NCBI GenBank assembly: GCA_965223155.1
Contig: CBDCVR010000015.1
Span: 896,001-960,000 of the forward strand
Source of the DNA: Candidatus Multivoradales bacterium
GTDB lineage: Bacteria > Acidobacteriota > Thermoanaerobaculia > Multivoradales > JAHEKO01
Length of the DNA stretch: 64,000 nt
Direction of reading: 5' to 3'
Below, in pieces: positions 54,028 to 63,064 of this stretch (its first letter is position 1; the number at the start of each line of letters is the position of its first letter). The position numbers and the translations under genes were made by a program. The notes beneath the pieces are model-generated. The model made no database searches. It was not told where the DNA came from and saw only the letters and a program-made list of their open reading frames with translations.

Positions 54028-57000
54028 TTGGCACGGCAGAACGAACGGTTGGCACATCGGCTTGGCGTAGCTTTTAGGGATCGTTCCGGAGACGGCTCGA
54101 TCGCATCGGTTGGGCTCATCGGCCCGCTCAAATCCGGTGCCGCATTCGCGCTCATTGCGGCATGGGGGCTTTTCTTCCTCTGGGCCACCCCGGCGGCGGC
54201 CCAGAACAACTGCTTCGGGGACGTCACCTGGGGCGGCGACGTCGACTCGACGATCGCAAAGCCCGAGAACTGCACCGCGGACACCCGCTGCTATCCACCC
54301 GAGCTTGCCGGCTCGGGAGTTTCGTTCGCTCCGGGCTGCGACCCATCGGCCGGGCCCTGCGACGTCACCGTCACGGCCCAGCTCCGCTTCCCCGGCAACC
54401 GGGACAACGAAGACTTCGTCGATGCCTCGGGCCTCGCCTACAGCTTCGCGACCTTTGCCGTCTTCGACAACACCGGCTCCGGCGTCGGCGGCTGCGGTGT
54501 TGCCGGCGCGGTCATCCAATGGGACACCGGCACCGCGACCATCCGCGGCCAGGCCAAGAAGGGCGACATCTTCACCATCGTCGCCCGCGCCTGCCCGTGC
54601 TCGCCCGAAGGCCTCTGCCCCCTGTGCGAGAAGACCGAGTCCTTCGTCATCCCGATCGGCAGCCCGCCGCCCCAGGACGACTGCGACGACTGCAAGGCCT
54701 GCCCGCTGCCGGGCGCTTCGGCCGGCGGCGGCGGGCCCAAAGGGACCACCGAAACCAACTCCGGCCCCGAGACGCTCGTCTACTACACGGCCGGCGGCAC
54801 GGGCGCACCCGGCACCCCCGGCGCGGACGAGCACGCCGCCACCCTCGGCCACGGCTTTGCCCACAACTTCTCCGAGCGGCTCGTCGCCGTGCCCGACGAC
54901 CCGTACGACGCCGAGCGCGTCTGGATGCTGACCCGCAAGGGAACCTTCCGCCAGTTCTGGAACCTCCAGGGCGGCGAGTACCTGGGCACCGCGCCCTCGG
55001 ACGAGTACCGCACGCTCTTTGCCACGGCCGCGGGCTACGAGCTTCGCGGCCTCGACGGCACGGTCCAGAGCTTCGATGCGGCCGGCGTCTGGACCGGCAC
55101 GGCCGACGCCTCGGGCAACGCCACGACCCCTGCCTACGACGCCTCCGGTCTTCTCACCGCGGTCGCTCTCCCCGACGGCAGACAAGAGACCTTCACCTAC
55201 CACCCGGCCGGCTCCGGCCAGGACGGCAAGCTCGCCACGATCACCGAGGTCGGCATCGACGGCACCTCGACCTTGACCTGGACCTACACCTGGTCCGGAG
55301 ACACCCTCGTCCGGATCGACGCCCCGGACGGCACCGCTCTCGCCTACGGCTACGACGACCCGCGCCACCCGGGCTTTCGAACTCTGACCGAACGGATCGG
55401 CACCGACGCGAGCCGCCGCGTCGAGCGCGGCTACGCCTACGACGACGAAGGCAACGTCGTCCAGACCTGGAGAGGCGATACCGTCCCCGCCGTTGCCGGA
55501 GTGAGCGCTTCGCTGCCCGGATCGAACGCCGTCGATCACGAGACCTTCGCCTTCGACGACCCGGTCAACCCGACCGTCACCACCAGGACCGACGCTCTCG
55601 GCAAGATCGCGACCTACGCCATCGGCCGCGACCCTTCGAGCGGCAAGGCCCGCGTGACCTCGATTGCGGGCGACTGCCCGGCCTGCGGCCTCGGTCCCAA
55701 CAGCCAGATCTTCTACGACGACCCGGACCATCCGCTGCTTCCCACTCGCTCGATCGACGGCCGCGGCACGGTCACCGCCATGACCTACGACGGCAACGGC
55801 AGGATGACCTCGCGCACGGAGGCGCTCGGCACCCCCGAGGAGCGCACCACGACCTGGAGCTACGACGATCCCGCCTTCCCGGCCGTCGCGACCACCATCG
55901 AGGAGCCCTCCACAACTGCTGGAGCCAGCCGCACCACCACCCTCGTTCTCGGCGCCGACGGCCACCCCACCACCCGCACCGTCTCAGGGGTCGAGGCCGC
56001 TAGCGCCTTCTCGCTGACCACCGCCACCACCTACACCCCCGAGGGCCAGGTCGCAACGATCGATCCCCCCGGCTTCGGCTCCGACGACGTCACCGGCTTG
56101 ACCTATGACCCCGCCCGCGGAGGCCAGATCCCGCTTTCCCGCACCGACCCGATCGTCGGAAGCCTTCCCAACGGCGGCGCCACCACCTTCGGCTATGACC
56201 CCTTCAACCGCAGAACCTCGGTCACCGACCCCAACGGGCTCGAGACCGTCACCGCCTACGATGCCGCCGACCGGGTGACCTCCGTCATCCAGAAGGGCGC
56301 GACCGCCGCCGAGGATCTCGTCACCGTCCATCAGTACACCGCCTTCGGCGACTTGGAGCGCACCATCCTCCCCGAAGGCAACGCCATCGAGTACGCCTAC
56401 GACTCCGCCGGACGCCTGACCTCGATCGGGCGCGGCCCCGCCCCCGGGGCCCTCCTCGAAAGAACCCTCTACGAGCTCGACGCCGCCGGCAACCGCACCC
56501 GCGAGACGCTCCAGGGCTTCGACGGCTCGGCCTGGACCACCGCCTCCGAGACCGCCTACCTCTACGACTCCCGATGCCAGCTCGACAAGATCGTCCGCGC
56601 CCCCGGAACCCCCCAAGAAGCCATCACCGAGTACCGCTACGACTGCAACGGCAACCTCGAATCCCTCTGGGACGCCAACCACTCCTCGGCCTCCGATCCC
56701 CCGACCCAGAGCTACACCTACGACCGCCTGGACCGGTTGACCGCCATCGACCAGCCCTGGGCAACTGGGCAACCAGGAGAGATGGCAACCACCACCTACG
56801 CCTACGACGTCCAGGACCACCTCGTTGCCGTCACCGACGCCGAGGGCAACACCACCGCCTACGTCTACTCCGACCGGGATCTTCTGACCCGCCAGGACTC
56901 CCCCGTCTCCGGGGCCTCGACCTTTGCCTACAACGACCACGGCGAGCTCGTCTCCGAAACCGACGGCCGCGGGGTCACAACGACCCGGACCATCGACGCC

Positions 57001-58911
57001 GCCCGCAGGGTCACCTTCCTCGACTCCGACGAGAACGCCCTCGATACCGCCTACACGTACGACGACCCCGCGGTGCCGTTCTCGGCGGGCAGGCTCACGG
57101 CCATCACCCGAGACACCCAGTCGATCGACTACGCTTACGACCGCTTCGGACGCACCATCCAGGACGGCACCCTCGCCTACGCCTACGACACGAACGGCAA
57201 CCGCACCGCAGTCACCTACCCAGGCGGAGTCGCCGCCACGACCACCCACGACTACGCCGATCGGGAGGAGACCCTGGCCGTCACGGATGGCGCAACCTCG
57301 ACCAACCTCGTCACCGCCGCCGCCTATCTCCCCTCGGGCCCCCTCACCTCCCTCGCCCTCGGCAACGGCTTGGCCGAGACCCGATCCTTCGATGCCCGGT
57401 ACTTCCCGGCAGGCATCGCCGTCCCCGGACGACTCGACTGGACCTACTCGACCGACACGATCGGCAACATCCTAGAGATCGCTGACACCGGAGGAGGCGG
57501 CGACCGAACCTACACCTACCAGGACGTCCACTACTTCTTGACTTCAGGCACCGGCCCCTGGGGCAGCCTGGCCTTCACCTACGACAAGATCGGCAACCGG
57601 TTGTCTGAGACCCGGGACGCCGGCGGCTCTCCCCAGAACCGGCCCTACGCCTACCCGGCTTCGCCTTCAGGAGGCAACCTCCCCAAGCTCGCCTCGATCA
57701 CGGACCCCGCGGGAGACCGTCTCGAGCGCTTCTTCTTCGACGACGCCGGCAACCAGACCTACCGCGCCACTCAGACCGCCAAGCACCGGCTGAGCTACGA
57801 TGCCCTGGGACGGATGGGCCAGATCAAGACCGACTCGGACGAAACCGCGGGGGCTCTCGTCACCCTCGCCTACGACGGCAGGAGCTTCCTCCGGGAGGCC
57901 ACTCGAAGCCCCTTCCCCGGCCAGCCCGCCACCGTCACCACCAACCCAACCTACAGCTCCGACGGGCTTCTCATGCACAAGGCCACCAGCGAGGTGCTGG
58001 GACCGGACGACCCGAGAGGCGAGGGGAGTGCCACCAGCGACGCCTACGTCCTCTACTTCGCGGGCAGGCCCGTAGGCGTCCTCGACAATGAGACCGTGAC
58101 CCCGCTCGGTGGAACGCCGACCAGCACCTCGACCCTCACCTACCTCACCACCGACCACCTCGGCACCCCCGTCCTCGCCACCGACGACTCCGGCACCACC
58201 ACCTGGGCCGGAGGCTTTGAACCCTTCGGGGACGACTGGCAGGCGGAGACGGGTACCGGGGCGAGTGACGCCGGAGTCTTCCTGCGCTTCCCCGGCCAGT
58301 GGGACGACCCGGCCTGGGGTGGGGCCGGGACGGCGGGCACTAGCGCCTCAGACCCGGGCTTCTACTACAACGTCCACAGGTGGTACGAGCCGGGGACGGG
58401 GAGGTATGCGAGGGTCGATCCGCTGGGCAAGACAAGCATCGACGGCACGAGACATCTCTTTGCATACTCCGAAAGTCGGCCGCTCTTCTTTGTGGACCCA
58501 AATGGCCTCAAAGTAGTGATCGAGGACGGCGGCGTCCAAACCGCCTATGACAACCTAAAGGACTGCTTCCCGTTTTTCCGTAACTTGATGGACCACTACG
58601 AGACGCAGACAGGCTTCCGTGGTCGAGACATCACATGGTCTATCAAGCAGCCCGTGTGGAACCCTCCAAGCTGCAATGCTGGCGGCCTCCGAGGTGAAGA
58701 GCGGACGGCTTGGGTTCCAAAAGAACTTGATTGTGAACTCATGGCCAAATGCATGGTCCACGAGTTCTACGAACGATGGCTCATTGACGTCGGCGGACAT
58801 CCGCAGTCGAAGGGCGGGACTGGGAGCGCAAACGACATGGCCAAGGCGAAGGAATCAACCTTGCCGGCGGAGTGTTGCTGTCCGACTTCCTCTTCAAAGG
58901 AGAGTGAGTGA
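54028..58911 (+). CDS. RHS/YD-repeat polymorphic toxin with Sec-type signal peptide
   Basis: Hydrophobic stretch ending PAAA|Q, Cys-rich N-domain, many YD repeats, core YLTTDHLGTP...LRFPGQW...YYNVHRWYEPGTGRY..VDPLG...DPNGL, then a lower-GC C-terminal tip with HEFYE. Start codon uncertain (TTG). Confidence 0.92.
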   Translation: MARQNERLAHRLGVAFRDRSGDGSIASVGLIGPLKSGAAFALIAAWGLFFLWATPAAAQNNCFGDVTWGGDVDSTIAKPENCTADTRCYPPELAGSGVSFAPGCDPSAGPCDVTVTAQLRFPGNRDNEDFVDASGLAYSFATFAVFDNTGSGVGGCGVAGAVIQWDTGTATIRGQAKKGDIFTIVARACPCSPEGLCPLCEKTESFVIPIGSPPPQDDCDDCKACPLPGASAGGGGPKGTTETNSGPETLVYYTAGGTGAPGTPGADEHAATLGHGFAHNFSERLVAVPDDPYDAERVWMLTRKGTFRQFWNLQGGEYLGTAPSDEYRTLFATAAGYELRGLDGTVQSFDAAGVWTGTADASGNATTPAYDASGLLTAVALPDGRQETFTYHPAGSGQDGKLATITEVGIDGTSTLTWTYTWSGDTLVRIDAPDGTALAYGYDDPRHPGFRTLTERIGTDASRRVERGYAYDDEGNVVQTWRGDTVPAVAGVSASLPGSNAVDHETFAFDDPVNPTVTTRTDALGKIATYAIGRDPSSGKARVTSIAGDCPACGLGPNSQIFYDDPDHPLLPTRSIDGRGTVTAMTYDGNGRMTSRTEALGTPEERTTTWSYDDPAFPAVATTIEEPSTTAGASRTTTLVLGADGHPTTRTVSGVEAASAFSLTTATTYTPEGQVATIDPPGFGSDDVTGLTYDPARGGQIPLSRTDPIVGSLPNGGATTFGYDPFNRRTSVTDPNGLETVTAYDAADRVTSVIQKGATAAEDLVTVHQYTAFGDLERTILPEGNAIEYAYDSAGRLTSIGRGPAPGALLERTLYELDAAGNRTRETLQGFDGSAWTTASETAYLYDSRCQLDKIVRAPGTPQEAITEYRYDCNGNLESLWDANHSSASDPPTQSYTYDRLDRLTAIDQPWATGQPGEMATTTYAYDVQDHLVAVTDAEGNTTAYVYSDRDLLTRQDSPVSGASTFAYNDHGELVSETDGRGVTTTRTIDAARRVTFLDSDENALDTAYTYDDPAVPFSAGRLTAITRDTQSIDYAYDRFGRTIQDGTLAYAYDTNGNRTAVTYPGGVAATTTHDYADREETLAVTDGATSTNLVTAAAYLPSGPLTSLALGNGLAETRSFDARYFPAGIAVPGRLDWTYSTDTIGNILEIADTGGGGDRTYTYQDVHYFLTSGTGPWGSLAFTYDKIGNRLSETRDAGGSPQNRPYAYPASPSGGNLPKLASITDPAGDRLERFFFDDAGNQTYRATQTAKHRLSYDALGRMGQIKTDSDETAGALVTLAYDGRSFLREATRSPFPGQPATVTTNPTYSSDGLLMHKATSEVLGPDDPRGEGSATSDAYVLYFAGRPVGVLDNETVTPLGGTPTSTSTLTYLTTDHLGTPVLATDDSGTTTWAGGFEPFGDDWQAETGTGASDAGVFLRFPGQWDDPAWGGAGTAGTSASDPGFYYNVHRWYEPGTGRYARVDPLGKTSIDGTRHLFAYSESRPLFFVDPNGLKVVIEDGGVQTAYDNLKDCFPFFRNLMDHYETQTGFRGRDITWSIKQPVWNPPSCNAGGLRGEERTAWVPKELDCELMAKCMVHEFYERWLIDVGGHPQSKGGTGSANDMAKAKESTLPAECCCPTSSSKESE
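57073..58430 (+). repeat. RHS core segment duplicated at 61190-62547 (offset 4117)
   Basis: Near-identical colinear DNA; similarity ends at the DPLGK codons. Confidence 0.9.
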
Positions 58912-59543: not shown

Positions 59544-59898
59544 GACGTTGTAGTGAGGCGTTCCCTGTAAGCCGGTCTGACTCCCCGGCCGGCGCCTTCT
59601 TGGGACTGATTCAATGAAGTCAGCGAGATTCCTCTGCTCTTTTTCGGACCAGCAGCGGCCGTCGATATCCTGTTTCAAAAATAGAATCGACCAAACGGGG
59701 CTTTGGAGCCGTTTCCTGAATTGCGGTGAGCAATGCGGCCCCGACGAGCCGTGCTCAGGCCAGTTCGAGTCGATTGTGGCAGGAAACTAGGGTGGAATTC
59801 GGTGACAGATGAGATGAGTCGGTCGGTCTCCAGCTGGGACACTGTGCCAGTTGGAGATAACCAAGAATCGGCATCAGAGCCGAGAAAGGAGACCGACC

Positions 59899-60912
59899 AT
59901 GGAGTATCTTGGCATCGATGTTCACTCGAAGTACAGCGAGGTGTGTGGCGTATCAGAAGACGGTGAGGTGACGGTTCGCCGGCGGGTTCCGACGACCGAG
60001 ACGGGCCTGCGAAGGTTCTTCGCCAATCGGGAACGCTCGCAGGTGACGCTCGAGAGCGGTCCGGTCACACCCTGGGTCTATCGACTGCTGTCTGAGCTCG
60101 GCCATGAGGTGATGGTGGTCAATCCACGCCGGGTACGTCTGATCGCGGAATCGACCCTGAAGACGGACGGAATCGACGCCGAGATCCTGGCTCGTTTGAG
60201 CCGGTTGGATCTGGGTTTGCTTCGACCAGTCTACCAGCGCACAGGTGAGGCCCAAGAGCTTCGGACGCGTCTTCGGGTCCGAACGAGTCTGGTGAAGACC
60301 AGGACCTCGCTGATCAACTCCGTACGCGGAACGCTGCGGGCACAGGGCTACCGAGTGCCCTCATGTCCGGCGAAGAGCTTCGTGGCTCGGTACGCGTCGA
60401 TGTCGGTCGAAGCCGGCCTGTTGGGAGCGCTCGAACCTCTGGTAACGACAATCGGCGAGCTGACCGATCGGATCCACCATCTCGAAGACGACCTCATCTC
60501 CGAGTCGAGATCAAACGAGCTGGTCCGTCGGCTGCAGACGGTTCCTGGTGTGGGGCCTCTGGTGAGCCTTGCGTTCGTCGGCTGGATGGATCGTCCGGAT
60601 CGGTTCGAGAAAAGCCGCGACGTCGGAGCGTGTCTGGGCTTGAGACCGTCGCTTCGCAGCTCAGGAGGGCATGAGGTCAGGGGCCGGATCACTCGCGAGG
60701 GCGACTCGGAGATGCGCAGACTCTTGGTGCAGGCAGCTCATGCGGCGTTGAACTGTCGCAAAGAGTCGTCACTCAAGAGATGGGCTGAGGGCCTGGTCGA
60801 GAGGCTGGGTAAGGGCAAGGCCGTGGTCGCGCTAGCTAGGAAGATCGCGGTGTTGCTCCACAGGCTGTGGGTGACAGGTGAGAGCTTCCGAGCCTTTCCC
60901 AAGGCAGCGTAG
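59899..60912 (+). CDS. IS110 family transposase/recombinase (DEDD RuvC-like + Tnp20 domain)
   Basis: AAGGAG RBS; YLGIDVH, LESG, KTDGIDA, TVPGVG, CLGL.P...SSGG...GRITREGD...RRLLVQAA, VALARK. Confidence 0.95.
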   Translation: MEYLGIDVHSKYSEVCGVSEDGEVTVRRRVPTTETGLRRFFANRERSQVTLESGPVTPWVYRLLSELGHEVMVVNPRRVRLIAESTLKTDGIDAEILARLSRLDLGLLRPVYQRTGEAQELRTRLRVRTSLVKTRTSLINSVRGTLRAQGYRVPSCPAKSFVARYASMSVEAGLLGALEPLVTTIGELTDRIHHLEDDLISESRSNELVRRLQTVPGVGPLVSLAFVGWMDRPDRFEKSRDVGACLGLRPSLRSSGGHEVRGRITREGDSEMRRLLVQAAHAALNCRKESSLKRWAEGLVERLGKGKAVVALARKIAVLLHRLWVTGESFRAFPKAA

Positions 60913-60944
60913 AAGAGATAACTAGACGACCAACAAGCAAGGAC

Positions 60945-61095
60945 GGATTGAGAGGTTCGATGACTCCGAAAGTATCCTTGGTGGCCCCGACACCGTGTGA
61001 CAGATGGGAGCATCGATTCCTAAACGGACGCAAAACTCACCATGCACCGGTTCAAAGAAGAACCCTACAGAGTGCGAATAGAAGCTCGTCCCAAG
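60945..61095 (+). ncRNA. Putative bridge/seek RNA of the IS1111-type element (boundaries approximate)
   Basis: Stem TCGATG-a-CTCC (60957-60967) / GGAG-CATCGA (61007-61016) encloses an internal loop capped by a GGTG/CACC hairpin; the loop strands match both flanks of the insertion site. A second nested stem-loop lies at 61026-61091. Confidence 0.78.
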
Positions 61096-61189
61096 CCTCG
61101 ATCCAAACCTAAGGAAAACTACAAAAAGAAGAAACGAAACTCTTGACGCCAACCGACCGACTCATAGAAGGATACTTATCTCTTTCGCC

Positions 61190-63064
61190 GTGCCGTTCTC
61201 GGCCGGACGCTTGACCGCTATCTCCCGCAACGGCCACTCCATTGACTACGCCTACGACCGCTTCGGACGCACCATCCAGGACGGCACCCTCGCCTACGCC
61301 TACGACACGAACGGCAACCGCACCGCAGTCACCTACCCAGGCGGCGTCACCGCCACGACCACCCACGACTACGCCGACCGGGAGGAGACCCTGGCCGTCA
61401 CGGATGGCGCAACCTCAACCAACCTCGTGACCGCCGCCACCTACCTGCCTTCAGGCCCGCTCACTTCCCTCGCCCTCGGCAACGGCTTGGCCGAGACCCG
61501 ATCCTTCGACTCGAGGTACTTCCCGGCAGGGATCACCGTCCCCGGACGACTCGACTGGACCTACTCGACCGACACGATCGGCAACATCCTGGAGATCGCT
61601 GACACCGGAGGCGGCGGCGACCGCACCTACACCTACCAGGACGTCCACTACTTCTTGACTTCAGGCACCGGACCCTGGGGCAGCCTGGCCTTCACCTACG
61701 ACAAGATCGGAAACCGGTTGTCTGAGACCCGGGACGCTGGCGGCTCTCCCCAGAACCGGCCCTACGCCTACCCGGCTTCGCCTTCAGGAGGCAACCTCCC
61801 CAAGCTCGCCTCGATCACGGACCCCGCGGGAGACCGTCTCGAGCGCTTCTTCTTCGACGACGCCGGCAACGAGACCTATCGCTCGACGACTACCGCCAAG
61901 CACCGGCTGAGCTACGATGCCCTGGGACGGATGAGCCAGATCAAGACCGACTCGGACGAGACCGCGGGGGCCCTCGTCACCCTCGCCTACGACGGCAGGA
62001 GCTTCCTGCGTGAAGCCGCCCGAAGCCCCTTCCCCGGCCTGCCCGCCACCGTCACCACCAACCCCACCTACAGCTCCGACGGGCTTCTCATGCACAAGGC
62101 CACCAGCGAGGTGCTGGGACCGGACGACCCGAGAGGCGAGGGGAGTGCCACCAGCAACGCCTACGTCCTCTACTTCGCCGGCAGGCCCGTAGGCATCCTC
62201 GAAAACGAAACCGTGACGCCCCTGGGCGGCGGCACAACCTCGAGCTCCACCCTCACCTACCTGACCACCGACCATCTCGGCACCCCCGTCCTCGCCACCG
62301 ATACCGGGGGAGCCACCACCTGGGCCGGAGGCTTCGCACCCTTCGGGGACGACTGGCAGGCGGAGACGGGTACCGGGGCGAGTGACGCCGGAGTCTTCCT
62401 GCGCTTCCCCGGCCAGTGGGACGACCCGGCCTGGGGTGGGGCGGGGGCGGCGGGCACTAGCGCCTCAGACCCGGGCCTCTACTACAACGTCCACAGGTGG
62501 TACGAGCCGGGGACGGGGAGGTACGGGAGGGTTGATCCGTTGGGCAAAAACGGAGAGGTCATCAGCTGGCCAACCGACGCTGCTGGGCTCGTTGCTCTCC
62601 GGGCGGGCACGGAGGCATCTGCGGCGATTAGGGACCTACAGGTTGTCAGTTGGAGTGCGACATTGTCTCCTTGGTTCGGATACGCACATCAGAACCCACT
62701 GAACCTCGTCGATCCAAATGGTCTCCTAACTTGTCGAGGACAGTGGAAAAAGACCTCAAGCCGGAGAGCCTTCTTGCTGTGGCCGCCGTTGTTTTGGAAC
62801 GGATGCGTCTGTCGTTGGCGCTGCGAGTCATGCACGCAAGACGACATCCTTCCCGCCAATCCCTCTGATATGCCTCTCACCAAGGGCTCAATGATCAACA
62901 CCGGCAGAGGCGCCAAGTTCGGAGATACCTGTCTTTGCCCCCCTCCTGGTGACGAAACAGGATGTTTCGAGTGTCAACCTCCTGAACTGCCCCAGCTACG
63001 AACTCCCGGAACCGCAATATGTGATCAAGGTCGCATCTCGGTACCGGGCCGATCTTGTTCATGA
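61190..63064 (+). CDS. Orphan RHS cassette: duplicated C-terminal core plus a different Cys-rich toxin tip
   Basis: Begins mid-core (VPFSAGRLTAI) with no signal peptide or clear RBS; follows the main gene to DPLGK; new tip after DPNGL. Confidence 0.85.
   Translation: MPFSAGRLTAISRNGHSIDYAYDRFGRTIQDGTLAYAYDTNGNRTAVTYPGGVTATTTHDYADREETLAVTDGATSTNLVTAATYLPSGPLTSLALGNGLAETRSFDSRYFPAGITVPGRLDWTYSTDTIGNILEIADTGGGGDRTYTYQDVHYFLTSGTGPWGSLAFTYDKIGNRLSETRDAGGSPQNRPYAYPASPSGGNLPKLASITDPAGDRLERFFFDDAGNETYRSTTTAKHRLSYDALGRMSQIKTDSDETAGALVTLAYDGRSFLREAARSPFPGLPATVTTNPTYSSDGLLMHKATSEVLGPDDPRGEGSATSNAYVLYFAGRPVGILENETVTPLGGGTTSSSTLTYLTTDHLGTPVLATDTGGATTWAGGFAPFGDDWQAETGTGASDAGVFLRFPGQWDDPAWGGAGAAGTSASDPGLYYNVHRWYEPGTGRYGRVDPLGKNGEVISWPTDAAGLVALRAGTEASAAIRDLQVVSWSATLSPWFGYAHQNPLNLVDPNGLLTCRGQWKKTSSRRAFLLWPPLFWNGCVCRWRCESCTQDDILPANPSDMPLTKGSMINTGRGAKFGDTCLCPPPGDETGCFECQPPELPQLRTPGTAICDQGRISVPGRSCS

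Follow-up and report, generated by a model that had tools for sequence, protein, structure and literature searches.

How does a mobile element that always inserts at the same short sequence recognize it? The question is raised by a stretch of 64,000 nucleotides from Candidatus Multivoradales bacterium (contig CBDCVR010000015.1, positions 896,001 to 960,000; the whole stretch is called here the window), in which the 3′ non-coding region of an insertion sequence (IS) repeats both halves of the sequence flanking that same IS. The segment 59809-61168 is very probably an intact insertion sequence of the IS110 family, IS1111 type, with a bridge/seek RNA that contains two internal loops, and it agrees with every testable feature of the IS1111 subgroup of the IS110-family bridge/seek-RNA elements. 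The window element is referred to as IS-A, its sister in the same genome as IS-B, and a close relative from elsewhere as IS-C; G and L numbers are used for other relatives and loci. Positions preceded by a C-number belong to the contigs of the window's own genome (4.0 Mb, 15 contigs) and all other positions are window coordinates.

The recombinase contains the two domains of the family (PF01548, E 8.5e-25; PF02371, E 4.5e-21) and reaches 241 bits against a cut-off of 140 in the NCBIfam equivalog model NF033542, "IS110 family RNA-guided transposase". Its catalytic-type motifs are GIDV (D7), LESG (E52), KTDGIDA (D90, D93), and GLRPSLRSSG at residues 247-256 (S255-G256). The protein aligns weakly to the solved chains of ISCro4 and IS621 (IS621 match, E 6e-10), with KTDxxDA and Ser-Gly aligned to the IS621 chain. 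Domains, model and motifs bear out the initial annotation of the locus, which had proposed an IS110/IS1111 element with an intact 337-aa recombinase. The IS1111 subgroup is characterized by subterminal inverted repeats of 7-17 bp and by an RNA in a long 3′ non-coding region (Siddiquee et al., 2024, PMC11187229; Durrant et al., 2024, PMC11208160; these and the other papers on the family are cited from excerpts), as well as by recombinases of 330-350 aa with the motif GL-P----S(t)G (Siddiquee et al., 2024). IS-A has 256 nt of non-coding DNA 3′ of the gene (60913-61168) versus 90 nt on the 5′ side (59809-59898), and it is assigned to this subgroup because the subterminal repeats, the 3′ non-coding region, the length of 337 aa and the GLRPSLRSSG motif all fit the definition. 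The RNA-guided IS110 class was described in 2024 (Durrant et al., 2024; Siddiquee et al., 2024) and is already curated (NF033542), the element being a further member. It may be an undescribed one, judging only by the low identities found here, the name of the element itself not having been searched for: the closest recombinases in a plasmid collection share at most 37% identity with it, and its best relatives outside its own genome, in a 401-genome sample of the phylum, 39-44%.

The copies of IS-A define both its ends and its target. The own genome contains 14 full copies (12 at 100% and two at 99.9% identity over 59810-61165) and one further copy split by another IS, which gives a total of 15 occupied sites. 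The 14 full copies are all bounded by ...GGTGACAGA and AGAAGGAT[A/G]C..., beyond which their flanks differ, and the interrupted copy is also found between GGTGACAG and AGGAT[A/G]C. Insertion of other copies at unrelated sites had been named at the outset as the result that would speak against guided targeting; instead, the 14 full copies and the interrupted one share a single site. For the empty form of this site, the two flanks of each copy were joined by script and searched against the own genome, and one reconstruction aligned end to end with C14:574279-574572 except for a 3-nt gap. The true empty site is GGTGAC-AG-GATAC (GGTGACAGGATAC), of which there are 17 exact unoccupied copies in the own genome. 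Two pairs of occupied and empty loci have identical flanks: C11:2931 and C14:574431 (minus strand) in the first, and C7:10446-13181 (occupied) and C14:366085 (empty) in the second. Comparison within these pairs identifies AG as the sole target duplication and 59809-61168 as the element, so that the A at 59809 and the AGA at 61166-61168 are part of the element and not of the target. The initial annotation had reconstructed the empty site as GGTGAC-AGA-AGGATACTT, with a 3-nt AGA core and a target footprint of ~17 bp. All of this has to be replaced: the 16-mer core of that site, GGTGACAGAAGGATAC, has no match in the 4.0-Mb genome at up to two mismatches, the core is AG, the footprint is about 12-14 bp, and the sequence common to all sites measures 13 bp, within which the guides read GTGAC+AG and AG+GATAC. 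Variants of the first reconstruction with one base of AGA deleted were also absent from the genome. Roughly half of the perfect sites contain a copy, and the nine sites with one mismatch (26 sites at one mismatch or fewer, minus 17 exact) are all unoccupied. One occupied site reads GATGC instead of GATAC, which would pair as an rU.dG wobble.

The target-binding loop carries one guide for each target strand. The 10-mer AAGTATCCTT (60970-60979) is the exact reverse complement of 61168-61177, and GTGACAGA (60997-61004) is identical to 59802-59809, a match that extends to 10 nt (60997-61006 = 59802-59811). Both matches had been reported in the initial annotation and are confirmed, as are the stem that closes the loop (TCGATG-A-CTCC, 60957-60967, with GGAG-CATCGA, 61007-61016) and its cap (GGTG-N7-CACC, 60980-60994), present in the sequence and in the minimum-free-energy fold. 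The account of two guides in an internal loop of the right end stands, with the correction that their outermost bases pair with the element's own ends. Of the 10-nt right match, the part AG+GATAC is general; positions 60970-60971 pair with TT in the window copy only, the other copies having AT, CT, TC or CC. Both guides include the AG core, where they overlap, and of the two matches the top-strand one is nearer the 5′ end. When the 253-nt non-coding region was subjected to 20,000 mononucleotide shuffles, matches of at least 10 nt arose 14 times for the left junction and 13 times for the right one, while matches of at least 8 nt to both junctions appeared once; the reported guide/junction matches are unlikely by chance.

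The same correspondence between guides and flanks is observed in relatives whose targets are different. A single-protein search for related loci gave two loci only, and relatives were therefore taken from the search of the 401-genome sample, in which 49 genomes have a relative at E ≤1e-30 (a tally that includes two unpublished genomes); the two loci of G389 and the locus L062, whose ends were not found with the motifs, are outside the counts. IS-B, with 82% DNA identity to IS-A and two copies identical to each other inside the element, has the termini of IS-A, but its loop strands read GAAAAGGGTT and GTGCCAGATG, and its target repeat, GGT[T/G]CC-A[C/G]-CCTTT, of which unoccupied members were found, is distinct from that of IS-A. 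IS-C, from an Acidobacteria metagenome-assembled genome (85% aa identity), has the left guide and the target of IS-A, and its right guide with one mismatch. Six more distant families from five genomes (39-44% aa identity) have the ends ATG[A/G]GATGAG and CTCAT[A/G]GA and the core AG or AA, four of them being multi-copy among the loci fetched; each has a loop between GACT[C/G]CG and G[G/C]AGC[A/G] with strands matching its own flanks. Over nine families, the longest match of the right guide averages 8.0 nt in cognate pairs versus 3.2 nt (maximum 5) in 72 non-cognate pairs. For the left guide the averages are 5.7 nt and 3.4 nt, respectively, the high non-cognate values being due to families that share a target. 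Single-copy relatives have flank matches of 11, 9, 7+7, 7, 6+7 and 6 nt. Of 28 homologous loci, a count that leaves out one locus from an unpublished genome, 14 carry the three-motif RNA signature. The prediction of the initial annotation that guides should co-vary with flanks thus holds in IS-B, IS-C and the six distant families; its description of the system as probably reprogrammable stands as far as natural variation goes.

The structure of the predicted RNA is conserved as well. The minimum-free-energy fold of the right-end region recovers the stem and the cap, and a 10-sequence alignment yields a consensus that comprises, in loop 1, the closing stem and the cap and, in loop 2, the inner stem and the hairpin. 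Compensatory changes are found in 13 of the 25 consensus pairs: helix 1 is 100% paired and has four compensatory pairs, helix 2 has four, and helix 4 has five out of five. The cells of the alignment are paired in 90.8% of cases versus 30-42% when the partners are slid by one to three columns. The observed covariation values were reached in none of 500 shuffles, a figure that overstates independence because the rows are related. In IS-B, both the cap stem and the second-arm hairpin show compensatory changes. The structure is supported by covariation and not by energy.

The second arm of the RNA was missed in the initial annotation, which had found the target loop only. In this arm the inner stem is followed by two spacer bases and the 7-mer ATAGAAG, with the same spacing from the stems as the left-target guide in loop 1. 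The 7-mer tracks the ends of each element: it is ATAGAAG in IS-A, IS-B and IS-C, ATGGAAG where the end is ...ATGGA, and ATAGAAA where the core is AA. It is exact in seven of 11 rows (eight if IS-B is scored with its left-junction AG) and in all six further relatives with a right end found. The closing stem of the arm is found only in IS-A, IS-B and IS-C, while helices 3 and 4 belong to the consensus. On the opposite strand of the loop, the first four bases of the candidate right-donor guide follow positions 2-5 of the left end in six of seven families, one needing a 1-nt shift; this guide is probable and is the weakest part of the model. According to these data, the second arm of the "long seekRNA" may be a true donor-binding loop in this clade, which would settle a point left open for IS1111 elements in the excerpts of the seekRNA paper. 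The idea that a bulge on the 3′ side of the second arm (CTACAGA in IS-A, CGCCAGA in IS-B) tracks the left target was dropped, as IS-C, with the target of IS-A, reads CGAGAGA. The features of the locus are collected in Table 1.

Table 1. Features of IS-A and its insertion site in the window, and copies of the sister element IS-B in the same genome.
Feature	Position	Strand	Description and basis
IS-A	59809..61168	+	1360 nt (1362 with one core); start ATGAGATGAG, end CTCATAGA; from copies and end motifs
Left half-target GGTGAC	59801..59806	+	Left of 14/14 full copies and in 17 empty sites
Core AG, left copy	59807..59808	+	Occupied/empty paralogue pairs
Left subterminal inverted repeat ATGAGTCGGTCGGT	59814..59827	+	14 nt, 100% complementary to 61152-61165; 5 nt inside left end
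5′-untranslated region hairpin	59821..59898	+	Arms 59821-59831/59888-59898, 11-nt perfect inverted repeat; AAGGAGACCGACC-ATG
Recombinase gene	59899..60912	+	337 aa; DEDD/RuvC-like and Tnp domains
Bridge/seek RNA (predicted)	60945..61104	+	~160 nt; outer stem GGATTGAG (60945-60952)/CTCGATCC (61097-61104); predicted fold, consensus structure
Target-binding arm	60957..61016	+	Closing stem 60957-60967/61007-61016, cap hairpin 60980-60994; fold and covariation
Right-target guide	60970..60979	+	60972-60976 pairs GATAC, 60977-60978 core AG, 60979 the element's last A
Left-target guide	60997..61006	+	GTGAC+AG (60997-61003) in top-strand sense; ATG (61004-61006) = element's first 3 nt
Candidate donor-binding arm	61026..61091	+	Closing stem GGACG 61026-61030/CGTCC 61087-61091; inner stem 61044-61047/61072-61075; hairpin 61049-61064
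Candidate right-donor guide CTCACCAT	61036..61043	+	6/8 positions of the complement of A-AG-ATGAG; read by eye
Left-donor guide ATAGAAG	61078..61084	+	Element's last 5 nt + core; same 7-mer at 61164-61170
-35-like TTGACG	61143..61148	+	26 nt from right end
Right subterminal inverted repeat ACCGACCGACTCAT	61152..61165	+	14 bp; 3 nt inside right end
Core AG, right copy	61169..61170	+	Occupied/empty paralogue pairs
Right half-target GATAC	61171..61175	+	13/14 full copies, 17/17 empty sites
IS-B, copy 1	C15:372323 (span 372321-373690)		Own genome
IS-B, copy 2	C13:297860 (span 297858-299227)		Own genome

Several points weigh against this interpretation of the element and its RNA. The fold energy is no better than that of shuffled sequence (z -0.72 and -0.41), and a search of Rfam gave no relevant match, only a chance-level small nucleolar RNA (E 0.69) inside the coding region. 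The sequences compared are kin, so that the independent covariation events are fewer than the rows. The left guide is weak in some families: in G335 it comprises only CAG plus the element's own bases, and in G209 it is partial. In the relative L023 the right-guide match is only 4 nt, either because its right end has been mislocated or because it occupies an unusual site. The 15 insertions may not all be separate loci of one chromosome, since contigs C2, C7 and C11 are 94-99.8% identical to parts of large contigs, and some may be variants of one region. With regard to the second arm, a single position of the donor 7-mer fails to match in G069 and in G259a, and the right end of one G112 copy differs from its guide. 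In the candidate right-donor guide, the positions for the element's first base and for the first base of the core do not match, and among the AA-core families this guide does not co-vary with the core; a strict search for the expected guide (two mismatches or fewer) found it in no family. Finally, none of the sequencing runs listed is recorded as RNA, and the expression of the RNA, its binding by the recombinase and its requirement are carried over from the mechanism published for the family. As a separate observation on L023 (G053:C5:117435-121442, 44% identity; RNA 2636-2770), the sequence CACGGAGA of the 3′ strand of its loop recurs in the right flank.

The imperfect right-donor guide leads to the first alternative, that the RNA uses only its target loop, that the protein reads the ends of the element through the 14-bp repeats, and that the second arm is a scaffold or a processing remnant. 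In this sense, a short seekRNA of about 82 nt was sufficient for ISEc11 and the role of the long form was left open (Siddiquee et al., 2024, in the excerpts cited), so that loop 2 may be dispensable; the conservation of the ends over proteins with 39-44% identity would also fit recognition by the protein. However, the second-arm 7-mer changes together with the right end (A/G) and with the core (G/A), and it keeps the distance from the stems that the left-target guide has in loop 1. Moreover, donor-complementary loops have been reported, by manual inspection, in elements of the IS1111 group (Durrant et al., 2024). This alternative is thus considered unlikely, and a bridge/seek RNA with two internal loops continues to be the preferred reading.

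With the boundaries, core, site specificity, and covariation of guides with flanks and of RNA structure established in silico, a cycle of insertion can be proposed for IS-A after the published mechanism of the family, from which the RNA nature of the guide, protein binding, the circular intermediate and the chemistry of strand exchange are borrowed. The element would excise as a circle in which its right end (...CTCATAGA), AG, and its left end (ATGAGATG...) are joined. The 5′ strand of loop 1 would pair with the top strand of AG+GATAC and its 3′ strand with the bottom strand of GTGAC+AG. Loop 2 would act with the same geometry, its 3′ strand being equal to the element's last 5 nt plus the core (ATAGA+AG) and its 5′ strand partly complementary to the first bases. 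The complex of recombinase and RNA would then align the circle junction with a GGTGAC-AG-GATAC site, and strand exchange at AG would leave AG on both sides with no other duplication.

A promoter formed at the circle junction is a known feature of the family. Each of the 10 elements examined has the sequence TTGAC at 25-26 nt from its right end, and at the predicted junction a weak -10-like hexamer (GAAGAT/GAAAAT) would arise 17-18 nt downstream of it. This hexamer was computed for five elements and read from the ends in the others; in the remaining five elements a hexamer inside the right end outscored the junction one. TTGACG may be part of a junction promoter or of an outward promoter. At the other end of the element, the ribosome-binding region just 5′ of the ATG can pair with a portion of the left inverted repeat in the 5′-untranslated hairpin, which would occlude the ribosome-binding site in transcripts entering from outside, a possible role in translation control.

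These features bear on a second alternative, namely that the elements were amplified recently and are now inactive, or that the window copy is silent. A sigma-70 promoter scan of the linear element gave no sites, and the contigs of four public runs contain neither the circle junction nor the empty form of the locus, although contigs cannot reveal rare circles. On the contrary, the copies are identical, their reading frames are intact, and paralogous regions differ in the presence or absence of the element, all of which makes inactivity improbable. In runs X1, X2 and X4 (region 59768-61174), the IS body reaches ~6- to 22-fold the contig depth of the left flank, and several distinct loose ends adjoin both boundaries in the run contigs, as expected for a multi-copy element. 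In X5, which has a different organism label, there are four short pieces 99-100% identical to the 59768-61174 region.

The target itself suggests another possibility. The 13-mer forms the center of a short, imperfectly palindromic repeat that is dispersed through the genome, in which a mean of 5.9 of nine flank positions pair in register versus 3.8-4.6 out of register. The protein alone might select the site, for instance through this palindrome, the guide/flank matches being a coincidence; in ISPpu10, a stem-loop at the target is reported to add specificity (preprint 10.64898/2026.03.19.712850). Nonetheless, the shuffle odds and the contrast between cognate and non-cognate pairs across nine families stand against coincidence, and in IS-B the loop and the target have changed together. 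Cognate flanks, in addition, pair at 5.9 of nine positions versus 5.6 for non-cognate ones, which gives little sign of a selected hairpin; selection of the site by protein alone is consequently very hard to credit. The stricter idea that the target must form a hairpin was rejected with the same values and because a perfect 9-bp stem occurs in only two of 31 sites. Practically nothing is left of the proposal that the shared flanks belong to a longer element whose loop matches its own ends and not a target, already refuted: all copies do share GGTGACAG and AGGATAC, and the empty site first reconstructed is absent from the genome, but 17 GGTGACAGGATAC sites stand alone without any element, two occupied/empty pairs have identical flanks, and IS-B has the same termini within other flanks, which differ between its two otherwise identical copies.

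IS-B deserves separate attention on account of its cores. Its right-target guide is complementary to A-AC-CCTTTTC, while its left-target and donor guides carry AG. The five unoccupied IS-B repeats (C14:185511, C14:172055, C4:9445 and, on the minus strand, C14:185569 and C14:187777) have AC or AT as the core, and AG in no case. The left junctions of IS-B are AG (in the two copies and in a solo left-end remnant), and the right junction differs between the copies, AC in one and AG in the second, as would be expected if a heteroduplex core had been resolved either way. It is possible, if doubtful, that in IS-B a donor with the core AG recombines with a target whose core is AC, the split being encoded by the RNA of the element; the reading of the second arm as a true donor-binding loop is weaker than this one. 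If true, the clade tolerates or programmes non-identical cores, which would relax a design rule of bridge recombinases. The solo left-end fragment, C13:299287-299325 (minus strand), is a 39-nt IS-A/IS-B-like sequence with 97% identity, flanked by GGTTCCAG; it is located ~60 nt past the right end of IS-B and adjoins an inverted IS-B target repeat.

In the window, IS-A is found between two ORFs with Rhs repeats (PF05593/PF03527), at 54028-58911 (1627 aa) and 61190-63064 (624 aa). The second ORF starts 22 nt past the right end of the IS, downstream of the outward-facing TTGACG. The flanks of IS-A are repeated five to eight times at 87-97% identity (C15:~950-982 kb, C2, C9), in what looks like an array of rhs modules. 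The IS that interrupts one IS-A copy (C7:11411-12782; L015 2466-3837) measures 1372 bp, has produced an 8-bp target duplication, CGTCACTC, and encodes a 435-aa transposase of the Mutator family (IS256-type; PF00872, 1.8e-65). Other IS256-type copies are present at C14:571680-573051, C13:299686-301056, C15:374671-376045 and C11:5664-7035, and both copies of IS-B and one of IS-A have such an IS 0.5-1.4 kb downstream. An insertion hot spot at C13:297-308 kb contains one IS-B, one IS256-type IS and two IS-A in opposite orientation, together with six GGTGACAGGATAC sites that are unoccupied, of which two form a tandem with a distance of 21 nt; inverted pairs separated by 60-90 bp are frequent among the sites of this hot spot.

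The mechanism is not new, and the value of the locus lies in a clean natural data set: one genome in which a 13-bp site is occupied 15 times and empty 17 times, accompanied in the same genome by a sister element with jointly changed guides and target. Around them there is a clade, probably acidobacterial, with conserved ends, in which the target loop varies and the donor loop follows the ends. These elements provide ready-made guide/target pairs for a compact 337-aa recombinase, and the boundaries and target of IS-A can now be stated exactly for annotation. They also lend comparative support to a reading of the donor by the second arm of IS1111-type RNAs, and contribute one possible case of unequal-core recombination.

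Among the known systems, IS-A resembles ISEc11, ISXne4, ISKpn4 and ISPa11. These elements encode recombinases of ~340 aa that contain the GL-P----SG motif, and they have subterminal inverted repeats and a long stretch of non-coding DNA 3′ of the gene; in their seekRNAs the top-strand match precedes, in the 5′ to 3′ direction, the bottom-strand one, and the two overlap in the target (Siddiquee et al., 2024). The pair formed by IS-A and IS-B parallels ISEc11 and ISXne4, close relatives with the same stems and different guides and targets. IS-A differs from the elements in the excerpts of that study in its target, GTGAC-AG-GATAC, and in that a donor-matching second loop is evident here, where the role of the long RNA was left open. 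With IS621 it shares an RNA of two loops with two guides each, a 2-nt core duplicated at both junctions, and guides that read opposite strands on either side of the core (Durrant et al., 2024; Hiraizumi et al., 2024, PMC11208158), as well as the two-domain layout and catalytic motifs of the recombinase. The bases from the element's own ends beside the target guides resemble the handshake guides of IS621, in which extra bases match the non-cognate partner (Hiraizumi et al., 2024). Unlike in IS621, the RNA is located in the right end instead of the left, as in other IS1111 elements (Durrant et al., 2024), the loop has its guides in the opposite order, the inverted repeats in subterminal position are long, and the core is AG (AA in some relatives) and not CT. 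Finally, IS-A is comparable to the elements that target repetitive extragenic palindromic (REP) sequences, ISPpu9 (PMC12288879), ISPpu10 (10.64898/2026.03.19.712850) and ISPa11, in having many identical copies inserted in one orientation into a short palindromic intergenic repeat; it differs from them in the repeat family and in that the recognized bases are at the center of the palindrome.

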